A stretch of 64,000 nt of DNA from a virus (Duplodnaviria; Caudoviricetes): positions 6,834-70,833 of the IMG/VR virus record IMGVR_UViG_3300025924_000004; one strand, 5' to 3'. Shown piece after piece: positions 400 to 42,675 of the stretch (positions are counted from its first letter, which is position 1; each line of letters starts with the position of its first letter). The notes beneath the pieces are model-generated. The model saw nothing but the letters and a program-made list of their open reading frames with translations. It was not told the origin of the DNA and did not search any database. Made by a program: the position numbers and the translations under genes.

Positions 400-511
400 T
401 ATATTTGAGTAGAGTAGCCAGCTTCGAAATTTGCTGCCCATAGGAAAATATTTTTAAGTCCTTATTGCCTTAGTACCGAGTCGAAGCCGGGAACGGGCGA
501 TAGGGATTTTT
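400..511 (+). promoter_or_regulatory. Bacteroidota promoter plus structured leader A
   Basis: TATATTTG at 400-407; GCTTCGA (421-427) complementary to TCGAAGC (481-487) inside an 11-bp hairpin (459-469/496-506) followed by T5. Confidence 0.6.
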
Positions 512-517
512 AATGTT

Positions 518-1111
518 ATGAATCGCTATTTACAAAGATTTAAATCTACAGAAGAAAGGTTTACAGAAAAGTATGTTGTCAACCAAGAAACCTGCTGTTG
601 GGAATGGGTAGCTTGCAAGGATAAGGGTGGATATGGTAAATTCGATCACGTAAGGGCTCATAGGTTTTCTTACGAATTTTATGTCGGGGAAATACCGGAA
701 GGAAAATTTGTCTGTCATCATTGTGACAATCCATGTTGCGTTAATCCTGAACACCTTTGGGTAGGAACAGCGGAGGATAATTCATTAGATGCAAGGCTAA
801 AAGGAAGGATGCCTATAGCTGTTCACGGAAGTTCTGCCATGTATAATTTATACGGATGCAGATGTGATTTATGTGTTGAAGCTGAAAGTGAAAGAGGCAA
901 AAATTACCATAAAAATAACCCGGAAAAGGAAAAAGAGCGTAGTAAGAGATATTACGAGCAGAACAAAGATAAAGTAAATGCACGGGTAAAAAAATATAAG
1001 CAAGAAAACATAGAGTGGTATAGAAAATACGACAGGGAATATAAGGCTAAAAAACTAAAAGAAAAAAAAGCTAATCAAATTTCAAACCCAATTTCTCCCC
1101 CTTCTTCATAA
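518..1111 (+). CDS. HNH homing endonuclease
   Basis: AHRFSYE...[27 protein letters not shown] motif; basic C-terminal tail; opposite strand to neighbours. Confidence 0.9.
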
Positions 1112-2351
1112 CTTCTGTCATGCCCTCTATAGCGCCTAACTTTATATCTATCCTGTACCCTTTTACACCATCTGCGTATTTTTTTACCTTTTTGATACAT
1201 TCTTCGATAGAATCCCCGGTAGCTACGATAGCCCCTATTTCGGGCAATTCTCCCTCTTGTGGAACAATGTAATAAACATCGTTAATTTTAGTTAGGTTTC
1301 TAAACTTACACCACTTTCTGACCTGTGGTTCAATATATAAAGCCTGCCAGTGATTATTAGCCCAATCTGAATGAACCAGTACTTCCACCCCATACTTACA
1401 ATTATACTCCGGTTCTACCAATGCACCCATAGCTCCGTGCCATAATATTTCACCCAAATTGTCTATCATGGTTTGGAATAATTCTGACGGGGGGCTGCCG
1501 AATCTCATGCAGGCATCAGTCATGTACGATACCTTATCAGAACCGACCCTGATTTCAGTAGACATGAAATTTCTGCACTTATATTCACGCAAAGTGTCGG
1601 ATATTTTTTCAAGGTATTCAGTTATTATAGGGGACATATCTTTCAACTCTTTTACACAGGCAAAATAGCCCTCATCTTTTTGCTCATAACCAAAGAGTGA
1701 CTTTTCAGGGTAATTTCCGTCTATTGAAAAAATATCACAGCCGGTTTCAATTACGTCATCCCCGTCTATAGCATCTTCCACTATAAACTTAACTACCGAT
1801 TGACTTGCGCCCAAAGTAGTTTCAAGTTCATCTAAAATAGGCTCTGTTAGTAAATAGGTGGAAGCGTGAAAAGTTTCGAAGCAACCTCGGTATGTTGAAA
1901 TCTTAATATACTTGTTTTCATTCTTTTGAAGATACTTTCTTAAATTCTCCAATCCCTCTATTTCTCTAACGGGTTGTACAGGTAAACCAATCTTTTTAAG
2001 ATGCTTTTTAGTTTCCATCCTTAAAAGTTCTAATTCATCAGATGCCCTTGAACCCCACACACGTTTACCTAAACTTTCAAGATGTAGCTGAATGTCTGCA
2101 TCATAGCAATCAGGAAAAATAAATAAATCAATCTCATCAACGTAATCCCAAAAGTTATTTATTCGATACAACCCCTCATCTTCTAATCCATCACCGATAA
2201 GAACACCGCTATTCTTTGGAAAAGGCGAAACCCACGGCGTGAAATAATATACCTTCTGAAAGTACTTGGAAATAGTTATTCCAAACTCCAAAAATAACCC
2301 GTGGTCATATATACAAACCGTCTTTTCCTTTAAATTAACCTTTTCGTTCAT
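1071..2351 (-). CDS. ATP-grasp ligase, PurD (GAR synthetase)-like
   Basis: [32 protein letters not shown] and [11 protein letters not shown] mirror PurD motifs (K.FM...GIP, VVKADG, VIEEFLDG, EFN.RFGDP). Confidence 0.8.
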
Positions 2352-2354
2352 ATT

Positions 2355-2486
2355 TTATAGTAAATATATTTCATCTTCATCCAAATCATCAAATGTCCAA
2401 TCGTCGCTATCTCCTTCATCCCCTATTTTTTCTTCGGGGTCATCATAACCCTCTCCTTTAGGTAAACAGTCGCAAACGGGTATCAT
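2355..2486 (-). CDS. 43-aa highly acidic peptide, not in the ORF track (MIPVCDCLPKGEGYDDPEEKIGDEGDSDDWTFDDLDEDEIYLL)
   Basis: ATG overlaps the TGA of 2483..6616 (ATGA); TAA lies 3 nt before the ATP-grasp ATG; 17/43 residues are D/E. Confidence 0.75.
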   Translation of the reverse strand: MIPVCDCLPKGEGYDDPEEKIGDEGDSDDWTFDDLDEDEIYLL

Positions 2487-5400
2487 TTTCCTTTTTTTAC
2501 GTTTTGTCTTAATCCCGGTATACCTGTTTCCAAGTCTTCCTTAACGTATTTTAAAAGTCCGTGCTTCTTGTCAGGGGCACGTTTTTGTTGGTTTTTAGGA
2601 TTTATGCTAAAGGTTGATTTGTCTTTTGTATCTGTCACCGTTGCTAGCTGCTGAATGATACCCGGCTCAACTTCACCCTTAACTATATTTCCTACTAATT
2701 TATCAAATTTCCCCGTACTTCCCAAAGCACCTAAAATTTGGTCAGCACCGTTAGCTAAAGGTATGGCTTGTGCAAGACCGGAAGCAGTTGCTAAAGTTGC
2801 AGCCTCAATACCGTCCTGTTTTCTTCTGTGAGCGTCTAATACCTGCCTAAATGTTGCCCCGACCTGCATGGCTAAGAATATAGGGTGTTCTGTCATCCAT
2901 CGTGGTACATCTTGCCCATATACTCTTATTCCCCCCGCTTCCGGTTGGCCTTTCTTTTGCTTTCCGGGGCGATAAAAACCGCCAAAAGACTGCGGGTTAT
3001 AAAATCCTAATAGTAATGCCGCGCCACCTATAGAACCCTTTTTTAAATTATTAAGTATTTGTTCGGCTTCTTCCGGTTTGAGTTCACCCATGCCCTTGTG
3101 AAAGAAATAAGCTAACTTTTCTGCACCCGCACGTCTTGTCAGGTCAGACAGTCCTACACGGGCTAATTTAAGAGCAGATAATGAACCGAAAGCATATCGC
3201 GAACCCTCTAAGGCTATATTGGTAGGAACTTTAACGAAAGGCAGTAAAATACGAAATAGGGCTGCTGTGTTTTTAGCCCCCGTAGAACTACTGTTTTCTA
3301 AAGTACGCATAGCGGCCTCGTAAGCGGATGAAAGTTTATTGTCCCCCATAAATATAGCTCTGTTAGCATCTTTATAAGCATTAAGCCTGTTTTGGGCATC
3401 TATTGTAGGGTCAAGAGGGTCAAGTCCTTTCTTTGCCGCCGCTTCAAATCTTTTGGCGTAAGAGTATTCAAATATAGCTCTTTTGAACGGTGCTTTAATG
3501 GCAGAGTGCAGGTGTCCCCAAAAGTCTGCTGCTTCCGGTGGTAGTCTTCCTGCTACTTCCTTTCCATATAGTGCCGATATATCGCTTTGACCGCCTTTAG
3601 AAAGACTTAATTCATCAAATGAGTCTTTCATACCCTGCGTGGCTGCGGTAGCGTAGGAACGTGCTAATGCCTTTAAATTAGCTCCTGCTTCAAAGTCTGC
3701 TTTTGCGGCAAGACGTGGCAGTAATTTAGAATAACCTGAACCTAAAAGTTCTTCCGGTATTTTTAGGGAAAGAGTAGTTAATCCCGCTGCTGCCAGTTTA
3801 CCCAACACGGTTATAGAAGCAAGTTTAGCCCACCTACCCCACTTAACAGCAAAGTCAACTACTTTTCTGCCCACCTCTTTTTTGCTATTCGCTATTTCCG
3901 CTATCTGCTTATTTATCTTTGCTTGCTCCCGGTTGATGTCGGCACGTATTTTAAGGTAGTCGTTATCAACTTGTAGTTTACGTTGAGTTTTTTCTTCTAT
4001 GGTTCCTGTTTCATTTTGTGATTTAAGGTCAGCGAGTTTAGTTTCGGCACGTTTTTTTGCTGTTCCTAACCTACGCTCGTTATCTTCTTTAATTGCTTTA
4101 TCAAAACCGTCTTTGATAACTTCCTCTACATCTTTGTGATTTAATCCCTCGATGTGGTCTTTCAGGTCATTATAAACCTTATCCACCACTATTGATAAAG
4201 TATTAATACCATCGTGAACATAATTAATAGCCAGTTTGGTTAACGGCTCAATCATTTCAACTGGTATCTTATTTGCACCAATATCTTTTAGTGACTTGCG
4301 GGCAATAGTATGTAATGTAGCCAGTAGTTCAGCGCGTTCTTCCCTTAATTTTGTTCGGGTAACTTCTTTACGCGTCCTCCGTGCTATTTCACCTACCTTA
4401 TTGACAGAGCCTTGTTCCTGTAGTTTGCGTACCTGTTCTTCACGGTCGGATAGGTCACTTTCAAGTTGCTTTATCCTTGCGGTAGCATCTGTAAGTTGCT
4501 TTTCAAGTTCAGGACTTAACCCCTCACCACCGTTAGCTTGTTTGGCACGGTTTAAAATACGAACACGGGAGTAATCCCGTTTAAGCATTTCCTGCCTGTC
4601 ACGAAGCGTGATGCCAGCCCTGCGTCCTATTTCTTCGGTAGCGGCACGGTTTTCTTCGAGCAAGGCTTCGGTGCGCTCAAACTCTAAATGATTTTCAGCG
4701 GCATTTTCGGGGTGTTCATCGCTATCCTTTAATAGCGCATCCTGCCTGTTTTCAAGTTTTGCCTTGTGGTAACGTAAGGCGGCCTGCTGTTCCTCGGTAG
4801 CTACTACCTTTCCTTTGACGATATCTTTGGAAATTTTTTCGGGGTCAAGTTCACCGCTATCAATAAGGCGTTTGCCCTCTTTGTCAACATCGGCTAATTT
4901 CTTTTTCTGACGCGGCACATCTTCGCCACGTTCTGCTTCAACTTTGGAGTTAGTGATACCAGTTAACTTTTCCTCGCTTGACTGAACGCTACCGCTATCG
5001 CCTGTTTGTTGGCTTTTTTCTTCCCGAACTTTTTCTTCGTCTTTTGGAATGTTTTCCCCTTGTGGAACTCCGATATGTTGTTCGCTATCGTTTTCTTCGA
5101 TTTTCCCTTTTTCAACGGCATTGTCTTGTTCTTTTAAATCGGGTTCAGCCGATGCTTCCCCCGATTTGTTTACATCAGGTTTTTCTTGTGTCCGCCCTTC
5201 TTCGCTTTGGCTGCTTTGCCCTTCTTCGGGTCGTTCTGCCACTTGCTGTCCGGGTCGCCCATTTTCTTCTTGGTGATCTTCGCTTTTGGATTTGTCTTTT
5301 TCATTGCCTTTTTGTTTTAAAATTACGTTTTTAAGTTGATTGTTCAGTTCTTCCCTGTCTTTTTCTGCCTGTTCTAAATTTATTTCGTTTTCGGCATTTT

Positions 5401-6616
5401 TAACAGGGTCATCGGTTTTTTCCGAATACTTTTTAATATCATTATCCAAATCAGCTATTTTGCTGCCTAGGTCGTATTTTTCCTTTTCAGCATCATTAGC
5501 ATGTAGTAGTCCTATTGTGCCGAATAAGGGTGCTTGCTTTAATACAGCATCACTAATATCCTGAATAGCACCACCAATGGTCTGATTAAAAACTGGCCTA
5601 TCCGAAGCTAAGTCAACGCCACCTTTTAATACTGCCTGTCCTGCCTGCAAAGCAGAAAGGTCAACTGCTGCTTTTGATGTGGCTTCACCGTATTTAGGTA
5701 TCAGTTCGCCTAACTTATCAATGAATTTGTCTTTGGTGTCGTTTAAAACGGTTTTAAAGCCATTCTGTGTAAGATTTTTATCTACCGTTTCCTTTAAAGC
5801 ATCTGTAACAATGCCCTGTACGATTTTGTCCTGTACTTCTGCCGATGCTTTTCCGAAAAGACCTACGTTTTTATCAGCGAATATTAACCCGTTCAAAGCC
5901 CCCGTACCACCTATGTAGGCATCCCTGACTAAAGGATTTAATTTGTGGTCGGGGTCAACTTCGTCCATAGTTTCCTGACCCTGACCAAATCCTTGTAATG
6001 CGAACATGGTTTTTGGTAGTTCGGCATATTCGCCCCCAACTGCTGCCGGGGCGATATTAGCCAACATACCCAAAGTTTTGGTAGCACCCATGCCCAAAGA
6101 TTTAGTATCTTCAATCTGTGATTTTTGACCGGGAGTAACGCCTAAATCGGTAAATTTATCTACAGGTTTAAAAGCCTTGTCAGGTATAATTTGCGTATCG
6201 GATAAACTTGTGTTTAAGTGATTAAGTACCCATGCCCCGCCTTTAAGAACTTGCGTACCACCTTTTAAGGCTTGCGAGGTTACATAAGCACCTGATTTCA
6301 TCACCTTACCCAACGTACTATCCATAGCGTGTTGCTGCTTAATTTCATCGGGTGTAGCTTTCCTTAATAGGTCTTTTGGCTTTTGTGCTGCTATTTGTTT
6401 GTACTGGTCAACTTTTTCCCTTATTTCGGGCGGTAATTGCTGATAAAGGTTAAAATCTTGGGATGGGGAAGGCTTTGAGCCAACCGATGAGGCGGGTGTA
6501 GTATCTACTTTTTTTTTTGAATCTACCAAAACATCAGATGCAGGTGGTTTCCATGTACTCTTTTGTGGAGTAACAACCTCATCCGTAGCGGGTGGTGTCC
6601 AATTAAACTGCCCCAT
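2483..6616 (-). CDS. large internal virion (ejected/DNA-transfer) protein
   Basis: 1377 aa, helical and charged; N-terminal W.PPA.D repeats; third of three genes after the tail, as in podovirus ejectosomes. Confidence 0.7.
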   Translation of the reverse strand: MGQFNWTPPATDEVVTPQKSTWKPPASDVLVDSKKKVDTTPASSVGSKPSPSQDFNLYQQLPPEIREKVDQYKQIAAQKPKDLLRKATPDEIKQQHAMDSTLGKVMKSGAYVTSQALKGGTQVLKGGAWVLNHLNTSLSDTQIIPDKAFKPVDKFTDLGVTPGQKSQIEDTKSLGMGATKTLGMLANIAPAAVGGEYAELPKTMFALQGFGQGQETMDEVDPDHKLNPLVRDAYIGGTGALNGLIFADKNVGLFGKASAEVQDKIVQGIVTDALKETVDKNLTQNGFKTVLNDTKDKFIDKLGELIPKYGEATSKAAVDLSALQAGQAVLKGGVDLASDRPVFNQTIGGAIQDISDAVLKQAPLFGTIGLLHANDAEKEKYDLGSKIADLDNDIKKYSEKTDDPVKNAENEINLEQAEKDREELNNQLKNVILKQKGNEKDKSKSEDHQEENGRPGQQVAERPEEGQSSQSEEGRTQEKPDVNKSGEASAEPDLKEQDNAVEKGKIEENDSEQHIGVPQGENIPKDEEKVREEKSQQTGDSGSVQSSEEKLTGITNSKVEAERGEDVPRQKKKLADVDKEGKRLIDSGELDPEKISKDIVKGKVVATEEQQAALRYHKAKLENRQDALLKDSDEHPENAAENHLEFERTEALLEENRAATEEIGRRAGITLRDRQEMLKRDYSRVRILNRAKQANGGEGLSPELEKQLTDATARIKQLESDLSDREEQVRKLQEQGSVNKVGEIARRTRKEVTRTKLREERAELLATLHTIARKSLKDIGANKIPVEMIEPLTKLAINYVHDGINTLSIVVDKVYNDLKDHIEGLNHKDVEEVIKDGFDKAIKEDNERRLGTAKKRAETKLADLKSQNETGTIEEKTQRKLQVDNDYLKIRADINREQAKINKQIAEIANSKKEVGRKVVDFAVKWGRWAKLASITVLGKLAAAGLTTLSLKIPEELLGSGYSKLLPRLAAKADFEAGANLKALARSYATAATQGMKDSFDELSLSKGGQSDISALYGKEVAGRLPPEAADFWGHLHSAIKAPFKRAIFEYSYAKRFEAAAKKGLDPLDPTIDAQNRLNAYKDANRAIFMGDNKLSSAYEAAMRTLENSSSTGAKNTAALFRILLPFVKVPTNIALEGSRYAFGSLSALKLARVGLSDLTRRAGAEKLAYFFHKGMGELKPEEAEQILNNLKKGSIGGAALLLGFYNPQSFGGFYRPGKQKKGQPEAGGIRVYGQDVPRWMTEHPIFLAMQVGATFRQVLDAHRRKQDGIEAATLATASGLAQAIPLANGADQILGALGSTGKFDKLVGNIVKGEVEPGIIQQLATVTDTKDKSTFSINPKNQQKRAPDKKHGLLKYVKEDLETGIPGLRQNVKKGK

Positions 6617-7938
6617 TATTTCTTTATGTATGTTTTACCATCAGGGCCGATATATTGCGTACCTTTTGGTAGTTTGTTATATTCTGCTTCGCTTTGTACC
6701 TGTAATACGTGCTTTTTACCGCCCTGTGTCTGTAAAGCAGAAATATCTACTTTCTCCCCTGTTAACTCATTGGTAAGTTCATTTAACTTTACTTTGGCGT
6801 TGGGGTCTTTTGGGTCAATAATAACCTTTCTTGCAGGCGCTTTTTGTTTCCATTCCTGATTAGTGGCGTCCCATTCCCTTTTTGGCGGTACGTTAAATTC
6901 CAGTTTACCATCTGGGTGTTTTCCTATATCCAAAGTACCATCATAGGTCGGGTCTGCGGCTAACTTAGCTTTTAATGCCTCACCGCTATCATGTACGCCT
7001 GTAAGCATATCATTTACCCATTTTTGCCTATAAATAGGAGTCAGGTTTTGCGCTTGTCCGAAAGTGGGGTATAATGACCTTAAACGTGCTGCGTTAGCTT
7101 GAAGGGCTTCTAAATTACCCATAGTCATGCCTGCGCCTGTTACCTTTTGGCTATTCTTACCGCCACCGCTTACGGCATCGTACATTCTTTGACCCTGTAC
7201 CAAAACAGCCTGTGCAGGGTCTTGTATCCCCGTTTCCCTTATAGCCGTTTTAACTTTATTAGGGTCGCCTGTATGTGACTGAACCCATGCTTTCATGAAT
7301 TTATCCTGTGGAATTTCTGTAGCTGTGGTAGCTACGTTTTCCATCCGTCCAGTAGCCCTATTATACCTTTGTTCAGTAGTTGTAGTTGTTCCTGAAATAT
7401 TTTTAACAATTTCCTGCGCATCTTTAATGGGGTCGCTTTTTGGGACAAGGTATTGCTTGTTTTTAAAGTCATTGTACTTCGGGTCAAATGTGGATACTTT
7501 TGCCCTTTCAGGCATATCTTTCCAAAAACTATCATCCAAATCTACGTTAGGATTGTGGGCTAAAGCGGCATCTTTGTGGTATTCGTCGTTTTCCTGTTTG
7601 CTCTGTTGCGCCTTGTATAAAAATTCATTCTGCATTTGGCGCATTTGCAGGTTTAATGCCTGTTGCTTTTTGGGGTCCGTTTCGGAACGGTACTGCTGAA
7701 ATGTTTTTAATATGTTGCCGTAATCGTTATGCAATACGGGCATATCGGCATCACGTGAGCCGTTGAAGTTTAGTTTAGCAAGTTCCTTAGTAAAATCAGC
7801 TACATTGGTCGCCTGCTGCTGTTGTTGGGTAGCATAGCGTTTATTTAAGTCATCAAGTCCGGGGTTGCCTTGCCATACGTGGGCTTGGCCGCGCCCGTCA
7901 GCGTAAATTTGTCCCCAATTTGGTTGTATCTCTGCCAT
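6616..7938 (-). CDS. internal virion (ejected) protein
   Basis: 440 aa, Q/A/K-rich; C-terminal EYNKLPKGTQYIGPDG motif of a kind seen in ejected proteins; position. Confidence 0.65.
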   Translation of the reverse strand: MAEIQPNWGQIYADGRGQAHVWQGNPGLDDLNKRYATQQQQQATNVADFTKELAKLNFNGSRDADMPVLHNDYGNILKTFQQYRSETDPKKQQALNLQMRQMQNEFLYKAQQSKQENDEYHKDAALAHNPNVDLDDSFWKDMPERAKVSTFDPKYNDFKNKQYLVPKSDPIKDAQEIVKNISGTTTTTEQRYNRATGRMENVATTATEIPQDKFMKAWVQSHTGDPNKVKTAIRETGIQDPAQAVLVQGQRMYDAVSGGGKNSQKVTGAGMTMGNLEALQANAARLRSLYPTFGQAQNLTPIYRQKWVNDMLTGVHDSGEALKAKLAADPTYDGTLDIGKHPDGKLEFNVPPKREWDATNQEWKQKAPARKVIIDPKDPNAKVKLNELTNELTGEKVDISALQTQGGKKHVLQVQSEAEYNKLPKGTQYIGPDGKTYIKK

Positions 7939-9058: not shown

Positions 9059-9090
9059 TTTGGATATAAATATAAATATTTTTTACACGA

Positions 9091-10013: not shown

Positions 10014-10014
10014 T

Positions 10015-30141: not shown

Positions 30142-30356
30142 AATAATTCAGTTTCAGTGTATACTATAACTGTTGAATATGAGTCATTGCTATTTAAGAA
30201 CGTTTGTATGGATACTATTTCTTTTTCGGGAATAAAATCCTTTCTGTCTAAAAACGAATCTATATCTTGCTTTACGGACTCTATATTACTCCCATGACTA
30301 GTTGCCCATACCTTATAAAAGGTACGTAACTTTTTGTGCTTTGACTTACCTATCAT
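30138..30356 (-). CDS. hypothetical protein
   Basis: ORF with 4-nt overlaps at both ends. Confidence 0.55.
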   Translation of the reverse strand: MIGKSKHKKLRTFYKVWATSHGSNIESVKQDIDSFLDRKDFIPEKEIVSIQTFLNSNDSYSTVIVYTETELL

Positions 30357-30544
30357 TCAGCCATGCCCTCCATAAACCAATCGAATATTTCTTTGGCATC
30401 GGCCAATATTTCCTTTTTACCCGCCAAGTTTAAGTTTACATCGGACTCGTTCAGGTTTTCAGCAAGGTGTAATGCCTGCATCTTTGCTTCCAGTATTACC
30501 GTTTTACAAATACCGTAATAAGGTAGTTCTTTTTCTTCTTCCAT
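30353..30544 (-). CDS. hypothetical protein
   Basis: ORF directly downstream of leader B. Confidence 0.55.
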   Translation of the reverse strand: MEEEKELPYYGICKTVILEAKMQALHLAENLNESDVNLNLAGKKEILADAKEIFDWFMEGMAE

Positions 30545-30557
30545 GATTTTACCGTTT

Positions 30558-30668
30558 AAAAAGACCCGTCAGCCACGGATAAGACATAACTAAGCAATCA
30601 GTGATGAAAACACCGTAAAGACTGACGGGAATATTTTTGATTGGGTGTTTCATTATAACCTGATTGCT
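30558..30668 (-). promoter_or_regulatory. structured leader B
   Basis: 5' segment 30644-30668 complementary to 30593-30614, which lies in the loop of the CCCGTCAG/CTGACGGG stem (30565-72/30622-29); T5 follows on the minus strand. Confidence 0.6.
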
Positions 30669-30727
30669 GTTTGTAAATGTCGTAACTATTTCCCATATTT
30701 ACAAGAAAAAAACAAAAATATAAAACT

Positions 30728-30982
30728 ATGGGCAAGCTCATTTCAGTAACCGCTTACGTACTCGACTCAACAGCTTTTACGTCAGCATCGGTAATGGCCA
30801 TCAATGCAGACCACTTTTCACGGCCTGCACAAAACGCCACATTAGCGCAACGGCAGTCTAATCCTGCGGCATCAGCAAATATTAACACCGCTATTTATGC
30901 AAACTGGCCGTCTAACAACGAGGGAGAGAACCATATTATTTTAGTTAGCGACTCGCTGTCTACCATAGTTTCGGGTTCATAA
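30728..30982 (+). CDS. hypothetical protein (inverted single gene)
   Basis: 84-aa ORF, A-rich start context, hairpin downstream. Confidence 0.6.
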   Translation: MGKLISVTAYVLDSTAFTSASVMAINADHFSRPAQNATLAQRQSNPAASANINTAIYANWPSNNEGENHIILVSDSLSTIVSGS

Positions 30983-31038
30983 AAAATCCCGCTAATTACT
31001 TAGCAGGCGACCGTTCTTTGAAATAGGGAACGGATTTT

Positions 31039-31314
31039 TTATGCAGCAGGTTCAGTACTTACCGTAAAGCTCAACTGAAAGGCAGCAATAGCTTGCTGTG
31101 CCGTATCTAAGTCAGCCAAAGCCTGTGTCAAGTTAGCCAGCGTACTACCCTGTAAAGCGGCAAACGCCGTTTGAAAGTTAGCTACCGCTGTTTGCAGGTC
31201 AGCTACATTTGAGTTTATATCAATGGTTACTTTTTCCATCACTTTATATTTTTTTCCGTCTATTTTTACCCACACAATACCCCTTCGGTCATGCACCGAA
31301 TGACACCGCATCAC
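31039..31314 (-). CDS. heptad coiled-coil protein
   Basis: INSNVADLQTAVANFQTAFAAL heptads. Confidence 0.5.
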   Translation of the reverse strand: MMRCHSVHDRRGIVWVKIDGKKYKVMEKVTIDINSNVADLQTAVANFQTAFAALQGSTLANLTQALADLDTAQQAIAAFQLSFTVSTEPAA

Positions 31315-31592
31315 TTCTTTTTACTCCCTTGTAATCCTTTTTTAATCGCATCGCTGGCATCAGCACCATAGGTAGTGTTACCGTACCTATCCTTGCTTCC
31401 GGCTCCAACGGCCTTACCCCATCCCGCTCGATTTAAAGAGTCTACTCGCCTTTTTGCTACCGTGCCTCCCTTAACTAAAACCTTTTCTTCGGTATGTTTG
31501 GGTCTTTTAGCGGTTATCTTAACCTCCTTGAGCATTTTTGGTGCAGGCTGTGCAGCCTTTTTACCTCCGTCTTTTTTCTTTGCCATGCCCAA
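31311..31592 (-). CDS. small basic K-rich protein
   Basis: MAKKKDGGKKAAQP...; possible DNA-condensing protein. Confidence 0.55.
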   Translation of the reverse strand: MGMAKKKDGGKKAAQPAPKMLKEVKITAKRPKHTEEKVLVKGGTVAKRRVDSLNRAGWGKAVGAGSKDRYGNTTYGADASDAIKKGLQGSKKK

Positions 31593-31686
31593 ATCTAACT
31601 ACCTTATTCCGTATTTACAATAGGCGGTGTAAAATAGTAGTCTGTCTTTTAGTGAGGGGGACTATCCCCTATTCTGTAACCAAGAC

Positions 31687-31731
31687 ACCGGGGGTGGTAA
31701 CATACCCGGGGGGCTACCTACCCCCACCCCC
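31687..31731. other. G/C-run imperfect palindrome, candidate packaging-initiation site
   Basis: GGGGGTGGTA...CCCGGG...TACCTACCCCC in an AT-rich intergenic region at the head of the late operon. Confidence 0.35.
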
Positions 31732-31842
31732 TAACTTTTTGAACAGCACCAAAGCAACCAAACTGTTACTGCCCCGGTGAAGCAAAATAAACTGGTAACA
31801 GGGTGTTATAAGTATTACTTTTTGGAATGACCATGATAGTGG

Positions 31843-32415
31843 TTAAACCGTCTCATAACTCCAACCGTTTATATTATCTTTGGCGTATCGTGTTAATGTC
31901 TTATAATTAAAGCCAGTTGCTTTGGCAGCTTCATAACTTGAACCGTATCGTTCGCCACCATAACAATACCATCCTTTAAACTTCGGGTGTTTAGAGCCTA
32001 TTTTAGCCTCGCTCATTAACTTTCTTGTTGTTTGTGGTACTTCTCTACCAAAATTATAATGATCTTCACCTTGTGGCATCTTATGACCTAATACCTCAAA
32101 CCTGTGTTTATGGTTTTGGCTGTGTGTAACCCATTCTAGATTTGTCTCATAATTATTTAGCTTATTGCCATCGTAATGGTTTATCTCCGGCAGGTTGTCA
32201 GGATTGGGTATAAAATGCTGACCAACTAACCTATGCGCATACTCCCACTTGCCAGCAATCCAGTACATTTTATAGCCATCGGGTTTAACTGCTCCCCTTA
32301 CAATAGCTGTCCCATAACGCTTGATGATTGTTTCGTCGGTGCGTTTTAGTGTCCCATAATTACCAATCAGGAATTTATTATCCTGTTTGCAGGGTTTAAA
32401 TACTTCATTTTCCAT
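31843..32415 (-). CDS. HNH homing endonuclease
   Basis: YAHRLVGQHFIPNPDNLPEINHYDGNKLNNYETNLEW. Confidence 0.9.
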   Translation of the reverse strand: MENEVFKPCKQDNKFLIGNYGTLKRTDETIIKRYGTAIVRGAVKPDGYKMYWIAGKWEYAHRLVGQHFIPNPDNLPEINHYDGNKLNNYETNLEWVTHSQNHKHRFEVLGHKMPQGEDHYNFGREVPQTTRKLMSEAKIGSKHPKFKGWYCYGGERYGSSYEAAKATGFNYKTLTRYAKDNINGWSYETV

Positions 32416-34378: not shown

Positions 34379-34469
34379 TACGCTTAACCCTTTACCCTAA
34401 CCTGTTAAACGAAAACGATACATTCATGATGTAAACAGGTTACTAATCAATAACTTAACATTTAAAATT

Positions 34470-34682: not shown

Positions 34683-34918
34683 ACTACGAACAGGCTGAAA
34701 TAATTTGGCGTGCGCGTCCGCTTGGATATGCTTGCTTTGTACTGGTTCACATCGTGTATGTGCTTCCGGTCGCTTACCTTACCTACAGGGATGGATTTAA
34801 CCATTTATGGGAACATGAAAGGGTTTTATATTATTGGGTTGCTTTCTGTATGGCCGGAGTTTGGTTTCAAATGTGGTGTCACAGAAGAGCAAAAACTATA
34901 CTTAAAAGAGGGTATTAA
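34679..34918 (+). CDS. small two-TM membrane protein
   Basis: two hydrophobic segments. Confidence 0.55.
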   Translation: MNYEQAEIIWRARPLGYACFVLVHIVYVLPVAYLTYRDGFNHLWEHERVLYYWVAFCMAGVWFQMWCHRRAKTILKRGY

Positions 34919-34919
34919 C

Positions 34920-35297
34920 ATGACAAACGACGAACATAAGGCGTATCTACAAAAACACACCGAAAACGGTGTATCTCTCTTTAATGAGATAATGAACATT
35001 GACGATAATATCGCTGAACTGAAAAAACAAAAAAGGCTGTTAATAAAGAAATACGCCCATGATAGCCATTTATTAAACGAGGGTGACAGGATTGAAATTA
35101 CTTGGCCTAATGGCATAACCGAAACGGTTGATATTTGCACACCTGGCGCTTCTAAGGTAATGCACGAACGCAACGAATACGATGTTGTGTATGGATACCG
35201 CATCCCTAACAAAGACGGTACACGTTCTAAAATAGGCGCGTTACGAACCTTGTGGCAAGGTCAGCTATTCGTCAATGGATATAAAAAATTAACCTAA
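34920..35297 (+). CDS. early hypothetical protein (probable start 34920)
   Basis: ATG right after the stop of the preceding gene. Confidence 0.6.
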   Translation: MTNDEHKAYLQKHTENGVSLFNEIMNIDDNIAELKKQKRLLIKKYAHDSHLLNEGDRIEITWPNGITETVDICTPGASKVMHERNEYDVVYGYRIPNKDGTRSKIGALRTLWQGQLFVNGYKKLT

Positions 35298-35308
35298 CTT
35301 TTCAAGTT

Positions 35309-35710
35309 ATGAAAACAATAAAGATAGAAATAGCGGATAATCTTTCACCGAAAGAAGAGGCTCTTGCAATTAGTAAACAGCTTGTGCAAAAGTCTTTGAC
35401 AACTGGCGGACAAAACAAAGACGTTAAACGCATAGGTACGCAAGTTGACGTTATTGACCTTAAAACAATCATTGAGATTGAAAGGATATCAACTGAAAAA
35501 CCCGTTACGATGCTTACTTGTAACGTTTGTGGCTGTGAATATCAATCCGATATGGCTAAACATTACTTCCATAACTACGGCGGTAACAGGACTAAGCGCT
35601 CTGTTTGCTCTGATAAATGTCGCGACTTTATGGTTGATATGTTCGGGGTTAGGATAGCTAAATCAGCAAGCAAATTACCCGCACCAATAAACTATTTTAG
35701 AAAATACTAA
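35309..35710 (+). CDS. zinc-finger protein
   Basis: CNVC...CSDKC. Confidence 0.6.
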   Translation: MKTIKIEIADNLSPKEEALAISKQLVQKSLTTGGQNKDVKRIGTQVDVIDLKTIIEIERISTEKPVTMLTCNVCGCEYQSDMAKHYFHNYGGNRTKRSVCSDKCRDFMVDMFGVRIAKSASKLPAPINYFRKY

Positions 35711-35783
35711 CTTTTCAAATAACATCTACTATTAATTCACCATTAATAACTCTTAAATATAACTAATTTAAATCAATAAAACA

Positions 35784-35939
35784 ATGGCAAAAAAAGAAAA
35801 TGTACGCAATATTCAACTCTCTGATTCGATAGTTGATTGCTTAATCAAAGAAGGACTGGATAAGGGCTTTAAAGGCTTTAAATCTTATGCCGAACACTTA
35901 CTGACTGAAATAGCTAAAAAATCAAAGTATGCAGCTTAA
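35784..35939 (+). CDS. 51-aa protein, possibly ribbon-helix-helix; not in the ORF track
   Basis: MAKKENVRNIQLSDSIVDCLIKEG...FKSYAEHLL. Confidence 0.45.
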   Translation: MAKKENVRNIQLSDSIVDCLIKEGLDKGFKGFKSYAEHLLTEIAKKSKYAA

Positions 35940-35951
35940 AAACATGTAAAG

Positions 35952-36125
35952 ATGAAAACATTTAATAAGGCACGTATAGAAAGTTTGATTATTAAATACG
36001 AAAATCAAGCCAAAGATTATCGCCAACATGCGGATGATTGTAACCCAATGGACTCCAATTGGTTCAAAGCTAAAGCCTAAATGCTCAAAATCGTAATTAA
36101 AGATTTAAAGCAAGCTATTAACTAA
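35952..36125 (+). pseudogene. small gene with in-frame TAA (36078-36080)
   Basis: ...NWFKAKA*MLKIVIKDLKQAIN*. Confidence 0.35.
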
Positions 36126-36452
36126 TTCACCCTATCACCCATAAATAAAAAACCACATGGAAATTTTAGAAATAAAAGAGGATTTTTGGGTCACATTTGA
36201 TGATTCAGATAATGATATTGAGTTTGAAATATCAAATTCCGAAACTACAGTACGTAAGTGGCTTAAAAGACAGGAAGCCCGTGAACTCTACGAGTTTCTT
36301 AAAAAGAAGTTTGACTTTTAACCTGTCAAAGAACTAAACTTAAATATAAGCAATAATTAGTTTACTTACAAATTTAAAAACCACAAAATAACAGGTATCC
36401 TTTCATTTTTTTACTGTTTTTATTTAGTATATTTGAATAAAAAAAATAAAAC

Positions 36453-37130
36453 ATGAAAAAAGATTATTCCCACTTAATTGGAGTAAAGAAGGATTTTTTA
36501 ACTCCGATAAAAATAGTGACAAAAATGTGCACTGGCGAACGTTGGAGGCGTACCTTCTTGGAATGCAAGTGTGACTGTGGTAATACATACCTTGCTCTTT
36601 GCTATATTTTCGACAAAAACAAGAGAAAGATATTTTCATGCGGTTGCAAACATGTGTGGGGAGGGGTGACACATGGCAAATACAATACCTCTGAATATCG
36701 CTCTTGGGCTGCGATGAAACAAAGATGCTACTCTCCTAAAAACGCTTATTATCATTTATACGGTGGTAGGGGTGTGTCTGTGTGTGATCAGTGGAAAAAT
36801 AGTTTTACTGCTTTCATAGAAGATATGGGACAAAAGCCAACCCCAAAACACACCATTGACAGAATTGATACAAACGGTAACTACGAACCCGGCAATTGCA
36901 GGTGGGCAACCGCTTATCAACAGGCCAACAATCAAAGAAATACTATTTTGGTAGAATTTAACGGCAAAACTCAAAGCACCTCTGAATGGAGTAAAGAGGT
37001 GGGCATTTCAAAAAATACGATATACACTAGAATTAGAAATGGGTGGACTGTAAAAGATACCTTAACAAAACCAATAACCTCACATAATTTAAAACCTAAA
37101 ATTAAAAAGAAATGGAAACACTTGAATTAA
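36453..37130 (+). CDS. HNH-type endonuclease
   Basis: CKCDCGN, YGGRGVSVC, HTIDRIDTNGNYEPGNCRWAT; own TATATTTG promoter. Confidence 0.85.
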   Translation: MKKDYSHLIGVKKDFLTPIKIVTKMCTGERWRRTFLECKCDCGNTYLALCYIFDKNKRKIFSCGCKHVWGGVTHGKYNTSEYRSWAAMKQRCYSPKNAYYHLYGGRGVSVCDQWKNSFTAFIEDMGQKPTPKHTIDRIDTNGNYEPGNCRWATAYQQANNQRNTILVEFNGKTQSTSEWSKEVGISKNTIYTRIRNGWTVKDTLTKPITSHNLKPKIKKKWKHLN

Positions 37131-37261
37131 TTATAAGAGAAGTAGCAATAAGTCTATTCTGCTGTGCTCTTTGTACCATGCTTCACTTTGGGTGGGCTAA
37201 TCGTAAAAGTATTGTTAATGAACTTAATTTAAAAAAAGGTTAAGGCTTTCACCCCCTTATA

Positions 37262-37291
37262 GACCAGCCCCTAAAAAAGGTTGGTTTTTTT
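37262..37291 (+). terminator. intrinsic terminator
   Basis: ACCAGCC/GGTTGGT stem plus T-run. Confidence 0.65.
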
Positions 37292-37326
37292 GTGCCTTTT
37301 GGGCGTTCCCCTGCGGGTCGCGCTTT

Positions 37327-37704
37327 TCAGGGCTGCGCTTCTCGAACAGTAACTAAGCGTCCGTTAACCATTTTTCTATTTCTTTTTTTAGGTATCCCCT
37401 TTGTTGGACGCCTTCCTTTTGCTTGGGCGTCCAGTACATTCTCTCGCTGTGTCCCCGCGAACAGATGAAATGGATTCACACAACGCGGATTATCGCATTT
37501 ATGTTAAACATTGAATTGATTAATGTCCCCAATAAATAGTTGGTAACTTACCCGATGTGCTTGGCACACTTTTTTATTAAAACGAAAAGCCCCGTAACCT
37601 GTGCCTATAATGCCCCTAATCCACTCCCAACAACCCGTTTCTGAATTAACCTCGTATCTCTCATTAAACCGTTCCATAGTTGGACGCCAAACATTAGATG
37701 CCAT
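37327..37704 (-). pseudogene. HNH endonuclease broken by a single in-frame TAA (37506-37504)
   Basis: QAHRVSY...[25 protein letters not shown] continues in frame to TGA at 37329-37327. Confidence 0.8.
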
Positions 37705-37721
37705 AATGCAATATAACTATT

Positions 37722-38288
37722 TTAATCGTTTAAACCAAGATATTTCTTTAATCTGTTTAACTTATTTTCGGGTATCAGGTGTATAAAAAGTTTCACCCGT
37801 TCAACTATTTTTGGGTATATTGGCATTTGTTTACGGGTGTCCGCGTCTAAGTGGTCGAAAGTATTATGGCAACTGCAATCACTAAAAAGAGCAACCCCCA
37901 TAAACGCCCGGTTTGACGGATGCGTGGCAACTTCGGGGAATAAACTTTTGGGCACAATATGAGCCGTAACACAGCGTTTAGCCCACTTGTTAAATGCGTT
38001 TAGCTTTTGGTTGCAGTTCTCGCATCTTTCGGGTACGTCTTGGCTCTCATACCATTTATCTAAATCGCTTTTGTTGTTTAGCCTTTCAACTGTTTTGGAC
38101 ACATTGCGTTTAAGGTGGTTTTTAGGCTCTACAATCAATTTTGGGTCAATTGTGGTGTATGTGTCCACCGGTAGCATAGAACGTTTATTACAGAGGCAGT
38201 AAAGCCCATCAGGGCGGATATTATTTAGGTACCATGTTTCGCCCTCAAAAATATATTCTTTTCCTCTCTTTGGTCTTGGGTTCATCAT
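37722..38288 (-). CDS. HNH-like/zinc-binding nuclease
   Basis: CENC...AHIVPKSLFP...CSCHNTFD. Confidence 0.6.
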   Translation of the reverse strand: MMNPRPKRGKEYIFEGETWYLNNIRPDGLYCLCNKRSMLPVDTYTTIDPKLIVEPKNHLKRNVSKTVERLNNKSDLDKWYESQDVPERCENCNQKLNAFNKWAKRCVTAHIVPKSLFPEVATHPSNRAFMGVALFSDCSCHNTFDHLDADTRKQMPIYPKIVERVKLFIHLIPENKLNRLKKYLGLND

Positions 38289-38851
38289 GAATTTTTTACT
38301 AATTTATCAATTCTGCCTTTGTGCAATCCCTGTAGTGTTAATAATTGTTTCTCAAGTTGGGCAAACTGTTTAATATTCAAACCTTTGTTTCTACTTAAAA
38401 CAACGTTAATAATCCTAATAACAATATCGGGTGCAAGAACGGTGATGTTTTTGGAAACATTACATCCCTGACAGGCAGTTATTAAATTATCCATAACCGT
38501 TAATCCTCCAATTACAATAGGGTTAATATGTTCTACGTTTAACTTAACCCCATCCTCAATTGAGGATTTACCACAATAAATACATCTAAATCCATCCCGA
38601 TGAAATATTGAAAAATCGCTCATTTTGGTTTTTTGCAATCGCGCCCTATTAAAAAGTGTGCAACACCTGTGCGAACAATATAGATTAGCGTCTGTAGTTG
38701 GCTGAAATTCATTTCCACAATGCAAGCAATTTTTTCTCTCTAAATTATTCCTTAAAGCCATTGATTTTCTATATTCTTTATAGCAATCTTTTGAACAATA
38801 CGTAGAAAGTGTCCATTTTTCTTGGCAATTTAAACATAACTTCCTTCCCAT
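38285..38851 (-). CDS. HNH endonuclease with N-terminal zinc fingers
   Basis: IFHRDGFRCIYCG...VEHINP..GG...NLITACQGCN. Confidence 0.85.
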   Translation of the reverse strand: MGRKLCLNCQEKWTLSTYCSKDCYKEYRKSMALRNNLERKNCLHCGNEFQPTTDANLYCSHRCCTLFNRARLQKTKMSDFSIFHRDGFRCIYCGKSSIEDGVKLNVEHINPIVIGGLTVMDNLITACQGCNVSKNITVLAPDIVIRIINVVLSRNKGLNIKQFAQLEKQLLTLQGLHKGRIDKLVKNS

Positions 38852-38860
38852 AATAAATTA

Positions 38861-38985
38861 ACTGGAACACGCAAAAGGCTTGTCAACAATGCCTATGAAG
38901 GATGGTTGCTTCTGCGCGTCCAGTATATTCTAAATATGTAAATCTGTTGTCTGCATAAACATTGTTAACAAGCGATATAAAGATA
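38861..38985 (-). promoter_or_regulatory. promoter plus structured leader C
   Basis: TATCTTTA at 38985-38978; 20-nt segment 38954-38973 pairs with 38878-38897, in the loop of hairpin 38861-79/38908-24. Confidence 0.65.
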
Positions 38986-39070
38986 AGAAAAATATTTTTA
39001 TCAATCAATAGCGTCACAGACCAAAACCTGACCGTTCTCTAAATCCCTTTCAACCCAAACAGGTTTTCCA

Positions 39071-39457
39071 TCATGCAGGAACTGCGTCCCCCGTTTCAAT
39101 TTCGTCATGGCTTACTAATGCTAAAATTTCCTCTACCTTATGCTTAAAAAACTTGTTAGTGTCCATTAAGTCTAAAACTGTTTCCTTTGCGTAAATTACC
39201 GTGCTGTGGTCACGCCCCCCGAAGTACCGCCCTATCTCTTTTAAACTGGCGTGTGTTTTTAAGGTTAAAATATACATGGCTATTTGCCGGGCTTCCACTT
39301 CGTGCCTGTATCGGCCTTTACTGGTTGCCATTAATAAGTCCACGCCCAAATAATCAAATACGGTTCGGGTTATTGCCCCGGCTTCGCCTATTGGTAGCTT
39401 GTACCTAAACTCTAATTGAGTATCGAAGTCAAGTCCGCAATAAATATTAGCATCCAT
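39071..39457 (-). CDS. stand-alone DnaA C-terminal (domain IV) HTH protein
   Basis: ARQIAMYIL...SLKEIGRYFGGRDHSTVIYA. Confidence 0.85.
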   Translation of the reverse strand: MDANIYCGLDFDTQLEFRYKLPIGEAGAITRTVFDYLGVDLLMATSKGRYRHEVEARQIAMYILTLKTHASLKEIGRYFGGRDHSTVIYAKETVLDLMDTNKFFKHKVEEILALVSHDEIETGDAVPA

Positions 39458-39494
39458 AATTGTTTAAAGGTTAGTATTGTATTTGTTGTAAAGT

Positions 39495-39719
39495 TTAAAT
39501 AAATGGGTCAAATAGTCGCTTAAATCGCTTATAGTCGTTGCTTAGTTCAAATTGTTCGCCGCCATCAATTAGTTCTTTGATCTGATTTGTTAAATCTTCT
39601 CCCGCTTTATTTTTAACCGAAAACCATTCACCAAAAGGTAAATTACGCAATTTTTTAATAGTTTCTAATATTTCAGAATGGGGCTTTTGCATCAAAATCA
39701 TAGTTCGGTTCAAGTTCAA
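39495..39719 (-). CDS. hypothetical protein
   Basis: ORF in the replication operon. Confidence 0.5.
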   Translation of the reverse strand: MNLNRTMILMQKPHSEILETIKKLRNLPFGEWFSVKNKAGEDLTNQIKELIDGGEQFELSNDYKRFKRLFDPFI

Positions 39720-41634
39720 ATTCCCGGCGTGAAACGGTTATGTCAATTATTTTAACAGGTTCTTTTCTTTTGTGATACTCCAATATCGGGTTGTAACCGC
39801 TTAATCCATTTGTACGACTAGGTACGGTTTCAAATCCAGAATAGCAGTTTACCATTTTTAAATCTACCGGGTTAGCAAAGAATGTTACTCGCCCCCCGGT
39901 TTCTGTTTCTTTAACTTTCCTCACATGAAATTCTGTGTACATCCAGTCCGTTTCATGCTGTGTAACCCGGTGTATGGTTATAAACTCGTCCGCTTTGTTA
40001 CCAAACATTACACCACCCTCGGTATCTTCTTTCTGTGGCGCACGGGTATATCCTGATTTATCCTTGTTCCTTGCGCCCGGCGTACCCACGTGGCAATTTA
40101 AATATACGGAAATATTATTTTTTTTCGCAAATAATTGTAACACACTTGCGGCCTCATAATGATAGTCATAAACGCCCTGTTTTGACTTAGCCGGAATATC
40201 GACCTTTAAAGAATTGTAAGGGTCAATCAGTAACATTTTATAGGTTTTTTTACCCATAGCCTTAACGGTCATGTTTAAAATATCCTGATAGTTGTACATC
40301 TTTTCAGAGCATTTTATAATATCGAAGTTTTCGCTTACAAATTTTTTTGCTATTTGAAACTTTTCGTCGCTCATACCATCTATTGGTTCGCTCCAATAAA
40401 ATTCAATCAACTTGCGAACTATTCCACCCACCCTATTTTCTGAACTAAATATCAAAGAACGCCACCCGTGCAATATTGCTGCAAGCATTGAAAGATACCA
40501 CGCCACCGAAGATTTACCCACGTTATCAATCCCATTTATAATAACCAAATTACCCTCTTTGAATAAAAAATGTTTGTCCAGTGTAGGTATTCCAGTAGAT
40601 TTACCCATTTCAAACGTTCCACTTCTCCACCGTTCTAAATATTCCTCATAGTCGTCTGGCGTAGCCAAAAACGATAAATCATCGTCGGATGTATCAACAA
40701 TGCTTGGAATAGATATTTCTTTGGCATCTTCAATCCGTTCTCCATATCCCTCATCATACAGCATTTTAGGAACTTTCGTAAAGTCACCACCGCATTTTAA
40801 CAGGCAATAAACCGCATAGGGTTGATATGGTGTTTGCGCTTCAAACTCTGTCGATGTGGTAAAAACACTAAACCACCTTTTTTCCTCATCATAATTACCG
40901 GAATGAATTGCTTTGGTATCCCCCGGTCTTTTAAGTAAAACTTTACTCCCTTTTCTACCAACTACCGACCATCCGTATTCACAAAGCAATCCTACAACAT
41001 CCCCTCGTTCGTTATAATCTTCGCTTGGCTTTAATCCTTTGATTTGTTTGCGCTGATTAATTACCGGGGGTCGATATTCTTTAACAACCTCATTAAAGCT
41101 ATACGCTACATTAAAAAGCGTTTCCCGCTCGGCTGGGGTTATGGTTTGAATATTTTCAAAAGTCCCGTAAATCAATTCATACCCCGGCGTAGGATAGCAA
41201 GCGATATAACCATGTTCGCCCCGTGTTTCAAAAAGTACTTTTATTTTGTCACCGTTTTGTTTTTCGGTTTCTGTGGCATATCGCTGGGCTAATTTTTTAT
41301 TACCCTCAATGGTTTCACATCGGTAAATAAAGTGATAACCGCCGCTAACTGTTTTTTGAACGGTCAATTTTTTTAGCAACTCCGGCGATATTTCGAGAAC
41401 AGTTTTTTTATACTCGGTAAACAACCTGCCCGTCAAATCATATTTTAGGTCTATGTCGATTGCTTCTACATTCCCTGATATTTTACCGCACACAAGGCCG
41501 ATACCATAGCATTTTGAGATTTCATGTTTAACCGTACTACTTTCCCATTTTTCAACCAACGGAATTTTTTTATCATTGATTGGAATGATTTGCAGTCCGG
41601 GGATGTTCTGTATGCCTGAATAGCTTTGCATCAA
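39673..41634 (-). CDS. Prim-Pol primase/polymerase fused to SF4 (DnaB/Twinkle-like) helicase
   Basis: AIDID and KTVSGGYHF (Prim-Pol); GIDNVGKS (Walker A), LLIDPYN, FGNKAD (SF4). Confidence 0.85.
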
Positions 41635-42317
41635 AAAGCGGGTTTTACTTGCCTAGTCGGCAACGGTTCATCAATCGAAAAAATAGGGGTTACTTTTTTG
41701 GGTTCATTTGAAACGTCTTTTTTCAACCACTTGCTTGCGGTAAGATAGAGTGATTTGTATTTTTTATTTTCCTTGTAATTTTCAATGTCGTCTAAAATTC
41801 CATCAATCTGATTTTTTGTAAATCCAGCGTCCTGTAGTTTAATAAATTCGTCGTGAGTTATCGCAAGATGCGCAAACTTTCTGTAGTAAGTTAAACTTTC
41901 TTTTCCACTATTAACAGGTATAGTTATATTTCCTTTAATAGCATTGCTTTCGCAATGCGTTCGCAATGCGTTCGCATTTTCCCATCTTTTCTTTGCTGAT
42001 AATGAGGTCTTTACAGATTTTTCATTTCGCTTAGATATACGCAATAATACGCTATCTGACCAGAAGTTCTCGCCATCTTTTTTGAACAAATTAAAGTCAT
42101 TAATTAAAGACGTAATGCAATCGCATTCCGTTCGCAATGCGAACGCATAGTTTTCGCATTCTGATAGTTTTAAATAGCCGTCTTGTTCATAGAGCATTTC
42201 GATTAAATCCCAAAAAATACTTTTGCCAGTATGCCCTAATTTCATCAAAACTTTTTGTAATTTAGGGTCATTACGAGCGTTATAATCGTGGCTAAAGTAA
42301 AAGGTATCCTTTGCCAT
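41631..42317 (-). CDS. replication initiator (DUF4373/Lin1244-like)
   Basis: [14 protein letters not shown]...FWDLIEML N-terminus; internal iterons. Confidence 0.75.
41941..42160. repeat. iteron-like TTCGCAATGCG repeats (probable ori)
   Basis: tandem copies at ~41949-41976 and further copies at ~42113-42150 inside the initiator gene. Confidence 0.65.
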
Positions 42318-42319
42318 GA

Positions 42320-42595
42320 TTAAACAGTTTTTAAGTGGGCATCAACTTGTTCTTTGACTTTAGGCTTTAGCCACGTTTGTATAGTAAGCCATTGAAGATA
42401 GCGTACTTCCTCATCAGAAGTAAGGGACTTGATTTCACGACCGGAATACTTACCGAAATATAACGCCGGGGGCTGATACGCTACATTTTTGATGTATGAA
42501 CCGCAACCATTGCAAAAGGCGGTTTTATGAACACCCCTGTCTGATATTGTATAATCATCAACAAGGCCGCATTTATTACAGGAAAGAGTTTCCAT
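42320..42595 (-). CDS. zinc-finger plus DUF3820-like protein
   Basis: CNKC..CNGC; LYFGKYSG...YLQWL. Confidence 0.6.
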
Positions 42596-42601
42596 AAAAT
42601 T

Positions 42602-42675
42602 AAAAAAGCCCGATGTATGTTAGAGCTACAATCGGGCAATGTTTAATGCGTGTGCATGGTTTCTGTAGCTCTAAC
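42602..42675 (-). promoter_or_regulatory. structured leader D
   Basis: perfect 12-nt pair 42664-42675 with 42619-42630, in the loop of the GCCCGAT/ATCGGGC stem; T6 follows. Confidence 0.65.

Follow-up and report, generated by a model that had tools for sequence, protein, structure and literature searches.

Structured 5' leaders of one design ahead of several operons of a likely Bacteroidota phage, one of them from a conserved and uncatalogued family of leader RNAs

The head of the late operon of phage lambda is organized as PR' - 6S RNA - tR', that is, a promoter, a leader of ~150-190 nt and an intrinsic terminator, and is governed by Q-dependent antitermination. The CI RNA of P4 and the c4 RNAs of P1 and P7 undergo processing and regulate two copies of their target in trans. 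The hairpins ahead of homing-endonuclease genes in the T4 family hide the ribosome binding site, and Bacteroidota largely do without Shine-Dalgarno pairing. To our knowledge, gene timing in phages of Bacteroidota has received hardly any study, and descriptions of antitermination or attenuation in these phages are lacking. Here we analyse four 5' leaders, A to D, in a 64-kb stretch of phage DNA (referred to as the window), which represents bases 6834-70833 of one 70.8-kb contig, IMG/VR record IMGVR_UViG_3300025924_000004. Leaders A (+ strand) and C (- strand) precede genes for HNH nucleases, B (- strand) stands at the head of the glycosylation/late operon and D (- strand) precedes the replication genes. 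In each of them, an early segment X is complementary to a segment X' in the loop of a G+C-rich hairpin P (strands P5' and P3') that ends just before the start codon. We consider the chances about even that A-D are cis-acting structured leaders of one design that serve promoter-proximal attenuation, whereas the evidence that B belongs to a conserved and uncatalogued family of leader RNAs, judged from sequence comparison, is firm.

The original prediction had named all four pairs of helices, and each could be located together with its hairpin just before the start codon. The strands follow one another in the crossing order X, P5', X', P3' in A, B, C and D, as predicted, and likewise in all B-type homologues described below. 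The hairpin ends 6-20 nt before the start codon, and a U-run follows it in A (507-511), B (30564-30558) and D (42607-42602) but not in C. Because of this U-run behind a G+C-rich stem, we read the hairpins of A, B and D as intrinsic terminators, although their P loops (24-26 nt in A, 45-49 nt in B and 16 nt in D) exceed the 3-10 nt of the other, ordinary terminators of this phage. About 38 gene starts are preceded by 70 nt or more of spacer, and only those behind A-D have a hairpin of -17 kcal/mol or lower that ends no more than 30 nt away; the runner-up reaches -11.5. Pairing between loop and upstream part exceeded that in shuffles of either the upstream part or the loop in all four leaders, with p values of 0.004-0.012 for A, 0.0025-0.0045 for B and at most 0.0005 for C and D, so that the predicted architecture withstood this control. 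Under a harsher null of real genomic segments, the values were 0.046 (A), 0.021 (B), 0.03 (C) and 0.0007 (D), and they are weaker partly because the null segments are richer in G+C than the leaders. All three terminators that lie directly before a start codon (loops 16-49 nt) carry the pairing. When the fetched loci of relatives were scanned for large-loop terminators before start codons, three were found, and upstream-to-loop pairing was significant in 3/3; two are B-type leaders and the third, at 3800-4010 of contig L015, is a classical alternative between a long hairpin and a terminator. This latter element (+ strand) is a leader of ~200 nt before a 90-aa gene, in which a hairpin of -69 kcal/mol and a 10-bp terminator vie for the same strand; an IS1595-type transposase gene (2145-3056) lies on the same contig.

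The likeness among the four leaders is one of shape. BLAST comparison of the leaders with one another and with other places revealed no similarity, in agreement with the predicted difference in primary sequence, and since their sequences are unrelated they do not form a family by common descent. The word family in the original prediction therefore holds in the sense of a common design only and, as far as sequences tell, A-D are analogous and not homologous. BLAST of each leader against the whole 70.8-kb genome yielded no paralogues and no further copies of X or X' beyond chance. A search of Rfam, as had been proposed, was run with cmscan and returned no existing family, either at gathering score over the whole window or at E<=1 on 30300-32000 and 38700-42900 and E<=5 on 300-560; the permissive thresholds gave chance-level matches to unrelated families only.

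Compared with the systems outlined above, B occupies the same position as the lambda leader, at the head of the late operon. In lambda, however, Q is loaded at the promoter and the terminator loop is unpaired with the 5' part of the leader, whereas no Q-, N- or RinA-like antiterminator was recognised here in a PHROG scan, an incomplete one, of 20 early and middle proteins. As in P4 CI and P1/P7 c4 RNA, an RNA embedded in a leader exposes a segment complementary to an upstream segment and is tied to premature termination, but here there is one partner, in cis, inside the terminator loop, and there is no immunity context. Since no covariance model matched, none of A-D belongs to the C4 family (RF01695; P1 c4, P4 CI, IsrK), and the second target box of that family has no counterpart in the genome; the likeness drawn in the original prediction is thus confined to logic. 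With classical attenuators and the pseudoknot riboswitch platforms ZTP and preQ1, the leaders share two helices of similar energy, of which the earlier forms first, and a terminator just before the gene. They differ from classical attenuators in that the rival helix of A, B and D occupies the terminator loop rather than sharing stem bases. Like the hairpins of T4-family homing endonucleases (I-TevI), A and C precede free-standing HNH genes, whose expression they would keep low, but the start region of the leaders here is unpaired in both states. A link to toxic genes, as had been surmised, is loose, as only two (A and C) of the five HNH nuclease genes in the window (518-1111, 31843-32415, 36453-37130, 38285-38851 and 53531-54334) have a structured leader. 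In a full-text literature search, we came across no phage terminator described as pairing through its loop with the 5' end of the leader it belongs to. Nearest in spirit are a paper on the terminator loops of sRNAs (PMC11979758) and one on phage T7, which describes abortive transcripts that pair with the upstream half of the terminator and relieve termination (PMC2952870). In T7, too, a transcript-start segment acts on the terminator hairpin by pairing, and in A and C X begins within ~10 nt of the predicted start site; the action in T7 is in trans and on the stem, here it would be in cis and on the loop.

Leader B, all parts of which lie on the - strand, comprises the following features:

30713-30720 (-): exact -7 box, ~45 nt upstream of X1, absent from the original prediction
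30660-30668 (-): 5' strand of X1, 9 bp with 30601-30593
30644-30653 (-): 5' strand of X2, with a conserved AUG at 30653-30651; 10 bp with one bulge, with 30614-30604
30620-30629 (-): P5', beginning with a conserved CCCG; 10 bp with 30574-30565
30604-30614 (-): 3' strand of X2, in the P loop
30593-30601 (-): 3' strand of X1, in the P loop
30558-30574 (-): P3', ending with CGGG, plus the U-run 30564-30558
30552-30666 (-): 115 nt absent from the natural variant L011, between the imperfect direct repeats AAACAG(C)AA / AAACGG(T)AA
30549-30653 (-): open frame of 34 codons that begins at the AUG in X2, crosses the terminator and stops 4 nt short of the main start

The end of P3' (30565) and the ATG at 30544 are separated by 20 nt. 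B-type leaders were found in four lineages, namely the window, contig L041, contig L016 (with L015) and contig L006 (to which L021 and L022 are identical). When the 63-aa protein encoded behind B was looked up by exact match, two short contigs of a close strain came up. Of these, L012 carries the B leader with two substitutions, and L011 lacks a stretch of 115 nt that opens barely within X1 and closes shortly after the U-run. This deletion of exactly the module shows that it comes and goes as one unit. In L016/L015 the 63-aa protein is 70% identical and a B-type leader is found in the same place; L006 (66% helicase identity) has its B-type leader directly before a GT2 gene, and L041 (71% helicase identity) carries one as well. 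In all four lineages the element lies ahead of a glycosyltransferase block. BLAST with B did not detect L016 and L006 as similar (L041 was outside the comparison). In IMG/VR pattern scans for B-type leaders, in which two of the patterns demanded one T too many, the L006 form was the only one to come up, in several copies, next to unrelated G+C-rich matches.

Across the four lineages, the helix strands of the B-type leaders start at 5-8 (X1), 19-26 (X2), 43-52 (P5'), 58-65 (X2'), 68-79 (X1') and 90-103 (P3'), and P3' ends 16-20 nt before the ATG. MAFFT alignments of these leaders were out of structural register, and pairs were counted by hand instead. In the hand alignment of the helix strands, 111/118 pair cells are canonical (94%) and 11/35 columns are compensatory, with both sides changed, nine of them in X1/X2 and two in P. 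When the partner strand was slid by 1-3 positions as a control, 34-44% of cells were paired and 0-3 columns were compensatory. Covariation of the kind that the original prediction had asked for was seen for B, the only leader with diverged homologues. Upstream-to-loop pairing was also significant in the individual homologues (p 0.0005 in L041, 0.012-0.018 in L016 and 0.012 in L006). The energies of the X and P states obtained by nested folding are close in B itself (-26.5/-31.3), and those of the homologues are -21.4/-22.0 in L016, -23.5/-22.5 in L006 and -28.4/-24.6 in L041. In 4/4 B-type leaders, a transcript truncated directly ahead of P3' adopts the X helix, which indicates that X has a head start. 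The invariant positions of the four sequences lie mostly in helices and few unpaired bases are conserved, so that there is no sign of a ligand pocket, four sequences being too few to exclude one. These data make B a member of a conserved, uncatalogued leader-RNA family, which probably meters how much transcription enters the late genes. The 60% relative of the 63-aa protein in contig L017 was considered as a further member and rejected: its upstream region 560-700 (+) differs and is not B-type. That region folds at -50 kcal/mol (z -4.95), and the fold ends in a terminator ~90 nt before the likely true start.

Leader D lies between small early genes and the replication genes:

42664-42675 (-): X, 12 nt, 12 perfect bp with 42630-42619
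42631-42637 (-): P5', pairs with 42614-42608
42619-42630 (-): X', fills 12/16 bases of the P loop
42602-42614 (-): P3' followed by a six-U run (42607-42602)

The U-run of D ends 6 nt before the ATG at 42595 of a Zn-ribbon gene that heads the replication genes, and its X and P states are equal in energy (-20.9/-20.9). A 14-nt exact match connects the spacer of D (42634-42647, -) with ~48227-48240 (+) inside the gene 47969-48385 (BLAST E 0.019) and is probably due to chance.

Leader C has the longest X helix of the four:

38954-38973 (-): X, 20 nt, pairs with 38897-38878 (20 bp, three G-U)
38909-38921 (-): P5', 13-bp stem
38878-38897 (-): X', abuts P3' without a linker
38865-38877 (-): P3', no U-run after it; 13 nt before the ATG of the HNH gene at 38851

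Of all uninterrupted stems within 140 nt in the window, the X helix of C ranks first in strength. All three of its non-Watson-Crick pairs are G-U on the sense strand, which argues for a structure of the RNA and not of the DNA, and its two states are close in energy (-31.5/-32.5). C and D are statistically strong but without comparative support.

Leader A, finally, is the weakest of the four, and a marginal one:

400-407 (+): exact Bacteroidota-type -7 box, TAnnTTTG
414-437 (+): small 5' hairpin with X in its loop (minimum free energy fold)
421-427 (+): X, 7 nt (extended 418-427, with one A.C mismatch that is G.U on the other strand)
456-470 (+): P5', 15-bp hairpin form with two G-U on this strand only; core P is 460-469/496-505
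481-487 (+): X', within the P loop; 9/10 pairs when extended (418-427/481-490)
495-511 (+): P3' followed by a five-U run (507-511); P extends over 456-470/495-509

The HNH gene starts with an ATG at 518, 6 nt after the U-run. The P stem of A ranks fourth among the window's uninterrupted stems within 140 nt, and its P state beats the X state by 10 kcal/mol in nested folding. Because X sits in the loop of hairpin 414-437, the contact in A would be made from loop to loop. Exact TAnnTTTG boxes are present upstream of A (400-407) and B (30720-30713), and C and D have one-mismatch versions only; of the two clear -7 boxes that had been claimed for A and C, the first is an exact match and the second at best a one-mismatch version.

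If the leaders act by attenuation, the long-range X helix would form first during RNA synthesis and turn the terminator loop into a stiff duplex, so that closure of the P stem would be delayed or blocked. The balance of both helices would then set the fraction of polymerases that enter the downstream gene, and anything that occupies or removes the 5' arm would restore termination. In this scheme we infer termination at the U-runs, the exclusion of one helix by the other and any regulation at all. X' is wholly contained in the loop in A and B, overlaps P by one optional G-U pair in D and abuts P3' in C; as the P stem of A, B and D is thus left free by X', one helix could exclude the other in these leaders by geometry only. 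The linkers measure 32/11/8 nt in A and 14/5/18 nt in B, which would permit a pseudoknot, 26/0/4 nt in D and 0 nt in C. Coexistence of both helices is unlikely in D, where 4 nt would have to span 12 bp, and impossible in C, where 0 nt would have to span 20 bp. The pseudoknot of the original prediction is accordingly plausible on steric grounds for A and B, doubtful for D and excluded for C, and its terminator switch could apply only to A, B and D with their terminator-like hairpins; without a U-run C is not a terminator switch and would act, if at all, as a two-state structure.

A number of observations weigh against attenuation as the common purpose of A-D. Mutual exclusion in A, B and D rests on sterics, and a true pseudoknot could form in A and B. 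If the 5' arm is always present, no trigger for switching is evident. The covariation table is a hand alignment fitted to the structure, with only four lineages. Near-identical genomes are the only ones in which A, C and D turned up, in unaltered form, and BLAST yielded no sequence-level homologues of them among all fetched loci. Among helicase relatives (64-78%) with other gene orders, a C-like leader after the helicase is absent in L006, L018 and L019, and a D-like leader before the replication genes is absent in L001, L019, L020 and L041. For A, neither a homologous locus nor relatives of its neighbours were found, its X helix is short (7 bp), and the mismatch in it speaks for the opposite strand, P for the sense strand. 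C has no U-run. Lastly, crossing pairs of uninterrupted stems, counted over the whole window, are in no excess over dinucleotide shuffles, so that this genome is not marked by crossing helices in general. The crossing scan also flagged a region of G/C runs with many alternative stems at 31650-31780 (-), which was dropped as it folds no better than shuffles (z 0.06); a stretch resembling it lies upstream of the B-type leader in L016 (2420-2480).

Several of these points can be turned into explanations of their own. One is that there is no common mechanism, B being real and A, C and D unrelated look-alikes, such as common terminators that carry repeats by chance, a site for RNase III in C, whose 20-bp helix is long enough for this enzyme, or inverted repeats at the DNA level in the neighbourhood of replication and nuclease genes. 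The restriction of A, C and D to near-identical genomes, the shuffle-like number of crossing helices, the missing U-run of C and, for A, the p value of 0.046 under the genomic null together with the conflicting strand signals would all fit, and by our estimate ~0.4 perfect 12-bp inverted repeats within 100 nt are expected per window. Against it stand the pairing in 4/4 of the strongest hairpins before start codons and in 3/3 large-loop terminators of relatives, and the strand-specific G-U pattern of C; we hold this explanation to be unlikely. A static pseudoknot, in which the helices coexist without switching and belong permanently to a constitutive terminator or an insulator, or form a nuclease-resistant 5' structure, appears to us no better than a minor possibility. 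It agrees with the lack of base competition between X' and the P stem in A, B and D, with the linkers of the B family (12-18, 2-9 and 13-18 nt), which are long enough to cross the helices, and with compensatory change that keeps both helices of B, but it is at odds with the short linkers of D and C. Moreover, a strong constitutive terminator 6-20 nt before essential late or replication genes would need an antiterminator, and none was recognised in the incomplete scan of 20 proteins.

For B alone, translation-coupled attenuation of the E. coli pyrBI type has to be weighed, in which a ribosome on the frame that starts at the AUG in X2 would follow close behind the polymerase and prevent the hairpin, and the X2 helix would mask this AUG when translation lags. 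As in pyrBI, a short frame crosses the terminator and closes shortly ahead of the structural gene. It spans 28-38 codons from the conserved AUG through P5', X2', X1', P3' and the U-run and is open in 4/4 B-type lineages (window 30549-30653 (-); L041 5837-5953; L016 2550-2636; L006 4142-4246), with its stop lying 25 nt past the main start in L041 and 4-12 nt ahead of it in the other three. The N-termini in the window, L041 and L006 are alike (MKxxIKNxP type), and the two remaining frames of B carry stops. On the other hand, shuffles give a chance of 0.27-0.44 per lineage for an open frame of that length, or ~0.015 jointly if the lineages were independent, which they are not; the peptides are otherwise unrelated, no gene caller calls the frame, and A, C and D have none like it. 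The conserved P5' string is read in different frames in the window and in L041, which points to conservation at the RNA level there. B further differs from pyrBI in showing no sign of nucleotide-sensitive pausing and in the extra long-range helix that covers the start codon of the frame. The sequences are suggestive of a translated leader frame in B without settling the matter, and coupling of the pyrBI type seems doubtful to us. An antisense device following the logic of P1 c4 and P4 CI is the least probable of these alternatives: the terminated leader would be a small RNA whose X' or X pairs in trans with nascent leaders and shuts off the operon after an early pulse. In A and B, a promoter, a leader of ~75-150 nt and a terminator make up the layout of a gene for a small RNA; X' is exposed in the loop of a hairpin and, in A, X lies in a loop as well, which is the classic geometry of kissing antisense RNAs. 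Yet neither RF01695 nor another Rfam family matches, the genome holds no second target copy, and pairing within the molecule should outcompete pairing in trans. Attenuation in cis by a helix in the terminator loop remains our preferred reading, at the even chance stated at the outset.

The contig carries phage genes throughout, including those for HNH nucleases, a primase-helicase, a Lin1244-type replication initiator, glycosyltransferases and an endolysin, and the gene assignments of the original prediction proved correct. The named relatives of the replication initiator are from Sphingobacterium, Mucilaginibacter, Adhaeribacter and Hymenobacter, which makes a host among the Bacteroidota likely, and the TAnnTTTG boxes before many genes are consistent with such a host. 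Exact boxes of this kind end 3-8 nt before the ATG of several late genes on the - strand (16095, 14747, 10076, 31597 and 19855), where they would yield leaderless or near-leaderless mRNAs. Rfam matched a tRNA at 47230-47416 (+; 187 nt, 43.8 bits) that ARAGORN did not call and that fits a tRNA with an insert of ~114 nt. Comparison of 8 kb of the phage with INPHARED phages by megablast gave no match, and IMG/VR scans with the helicase, an alignment of the 63-aa protein and the ATP-grasp protein gave few or no relatives.

Leader B represents a concrete, conserved and testable RNA element at the entry of the late operon in a group of ~70-kb soil and freshwater phages, and the natural deletion variant L011 can act as a control. 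On a wider view, which we rate as quite unlikely, the 'self-addressed terminator' would be a widespread and portable phage device, a promoter-proximal terminator whose loop carries a private address matching the start of the transcript it lies in, and terminated leaders would accumulate and act back on nascent copies; each gene block, be it nucleases, replication or late genes, would then receive its own self-limiting pulse without a protein regulator. If the helix that occupies the loop does tune termination, this would be a compact design principle, with the strength of a terminator set by an address in its own loop, a principle apparently adopted by one phage at several operons independently of each other and open to use in synthetic circuits.

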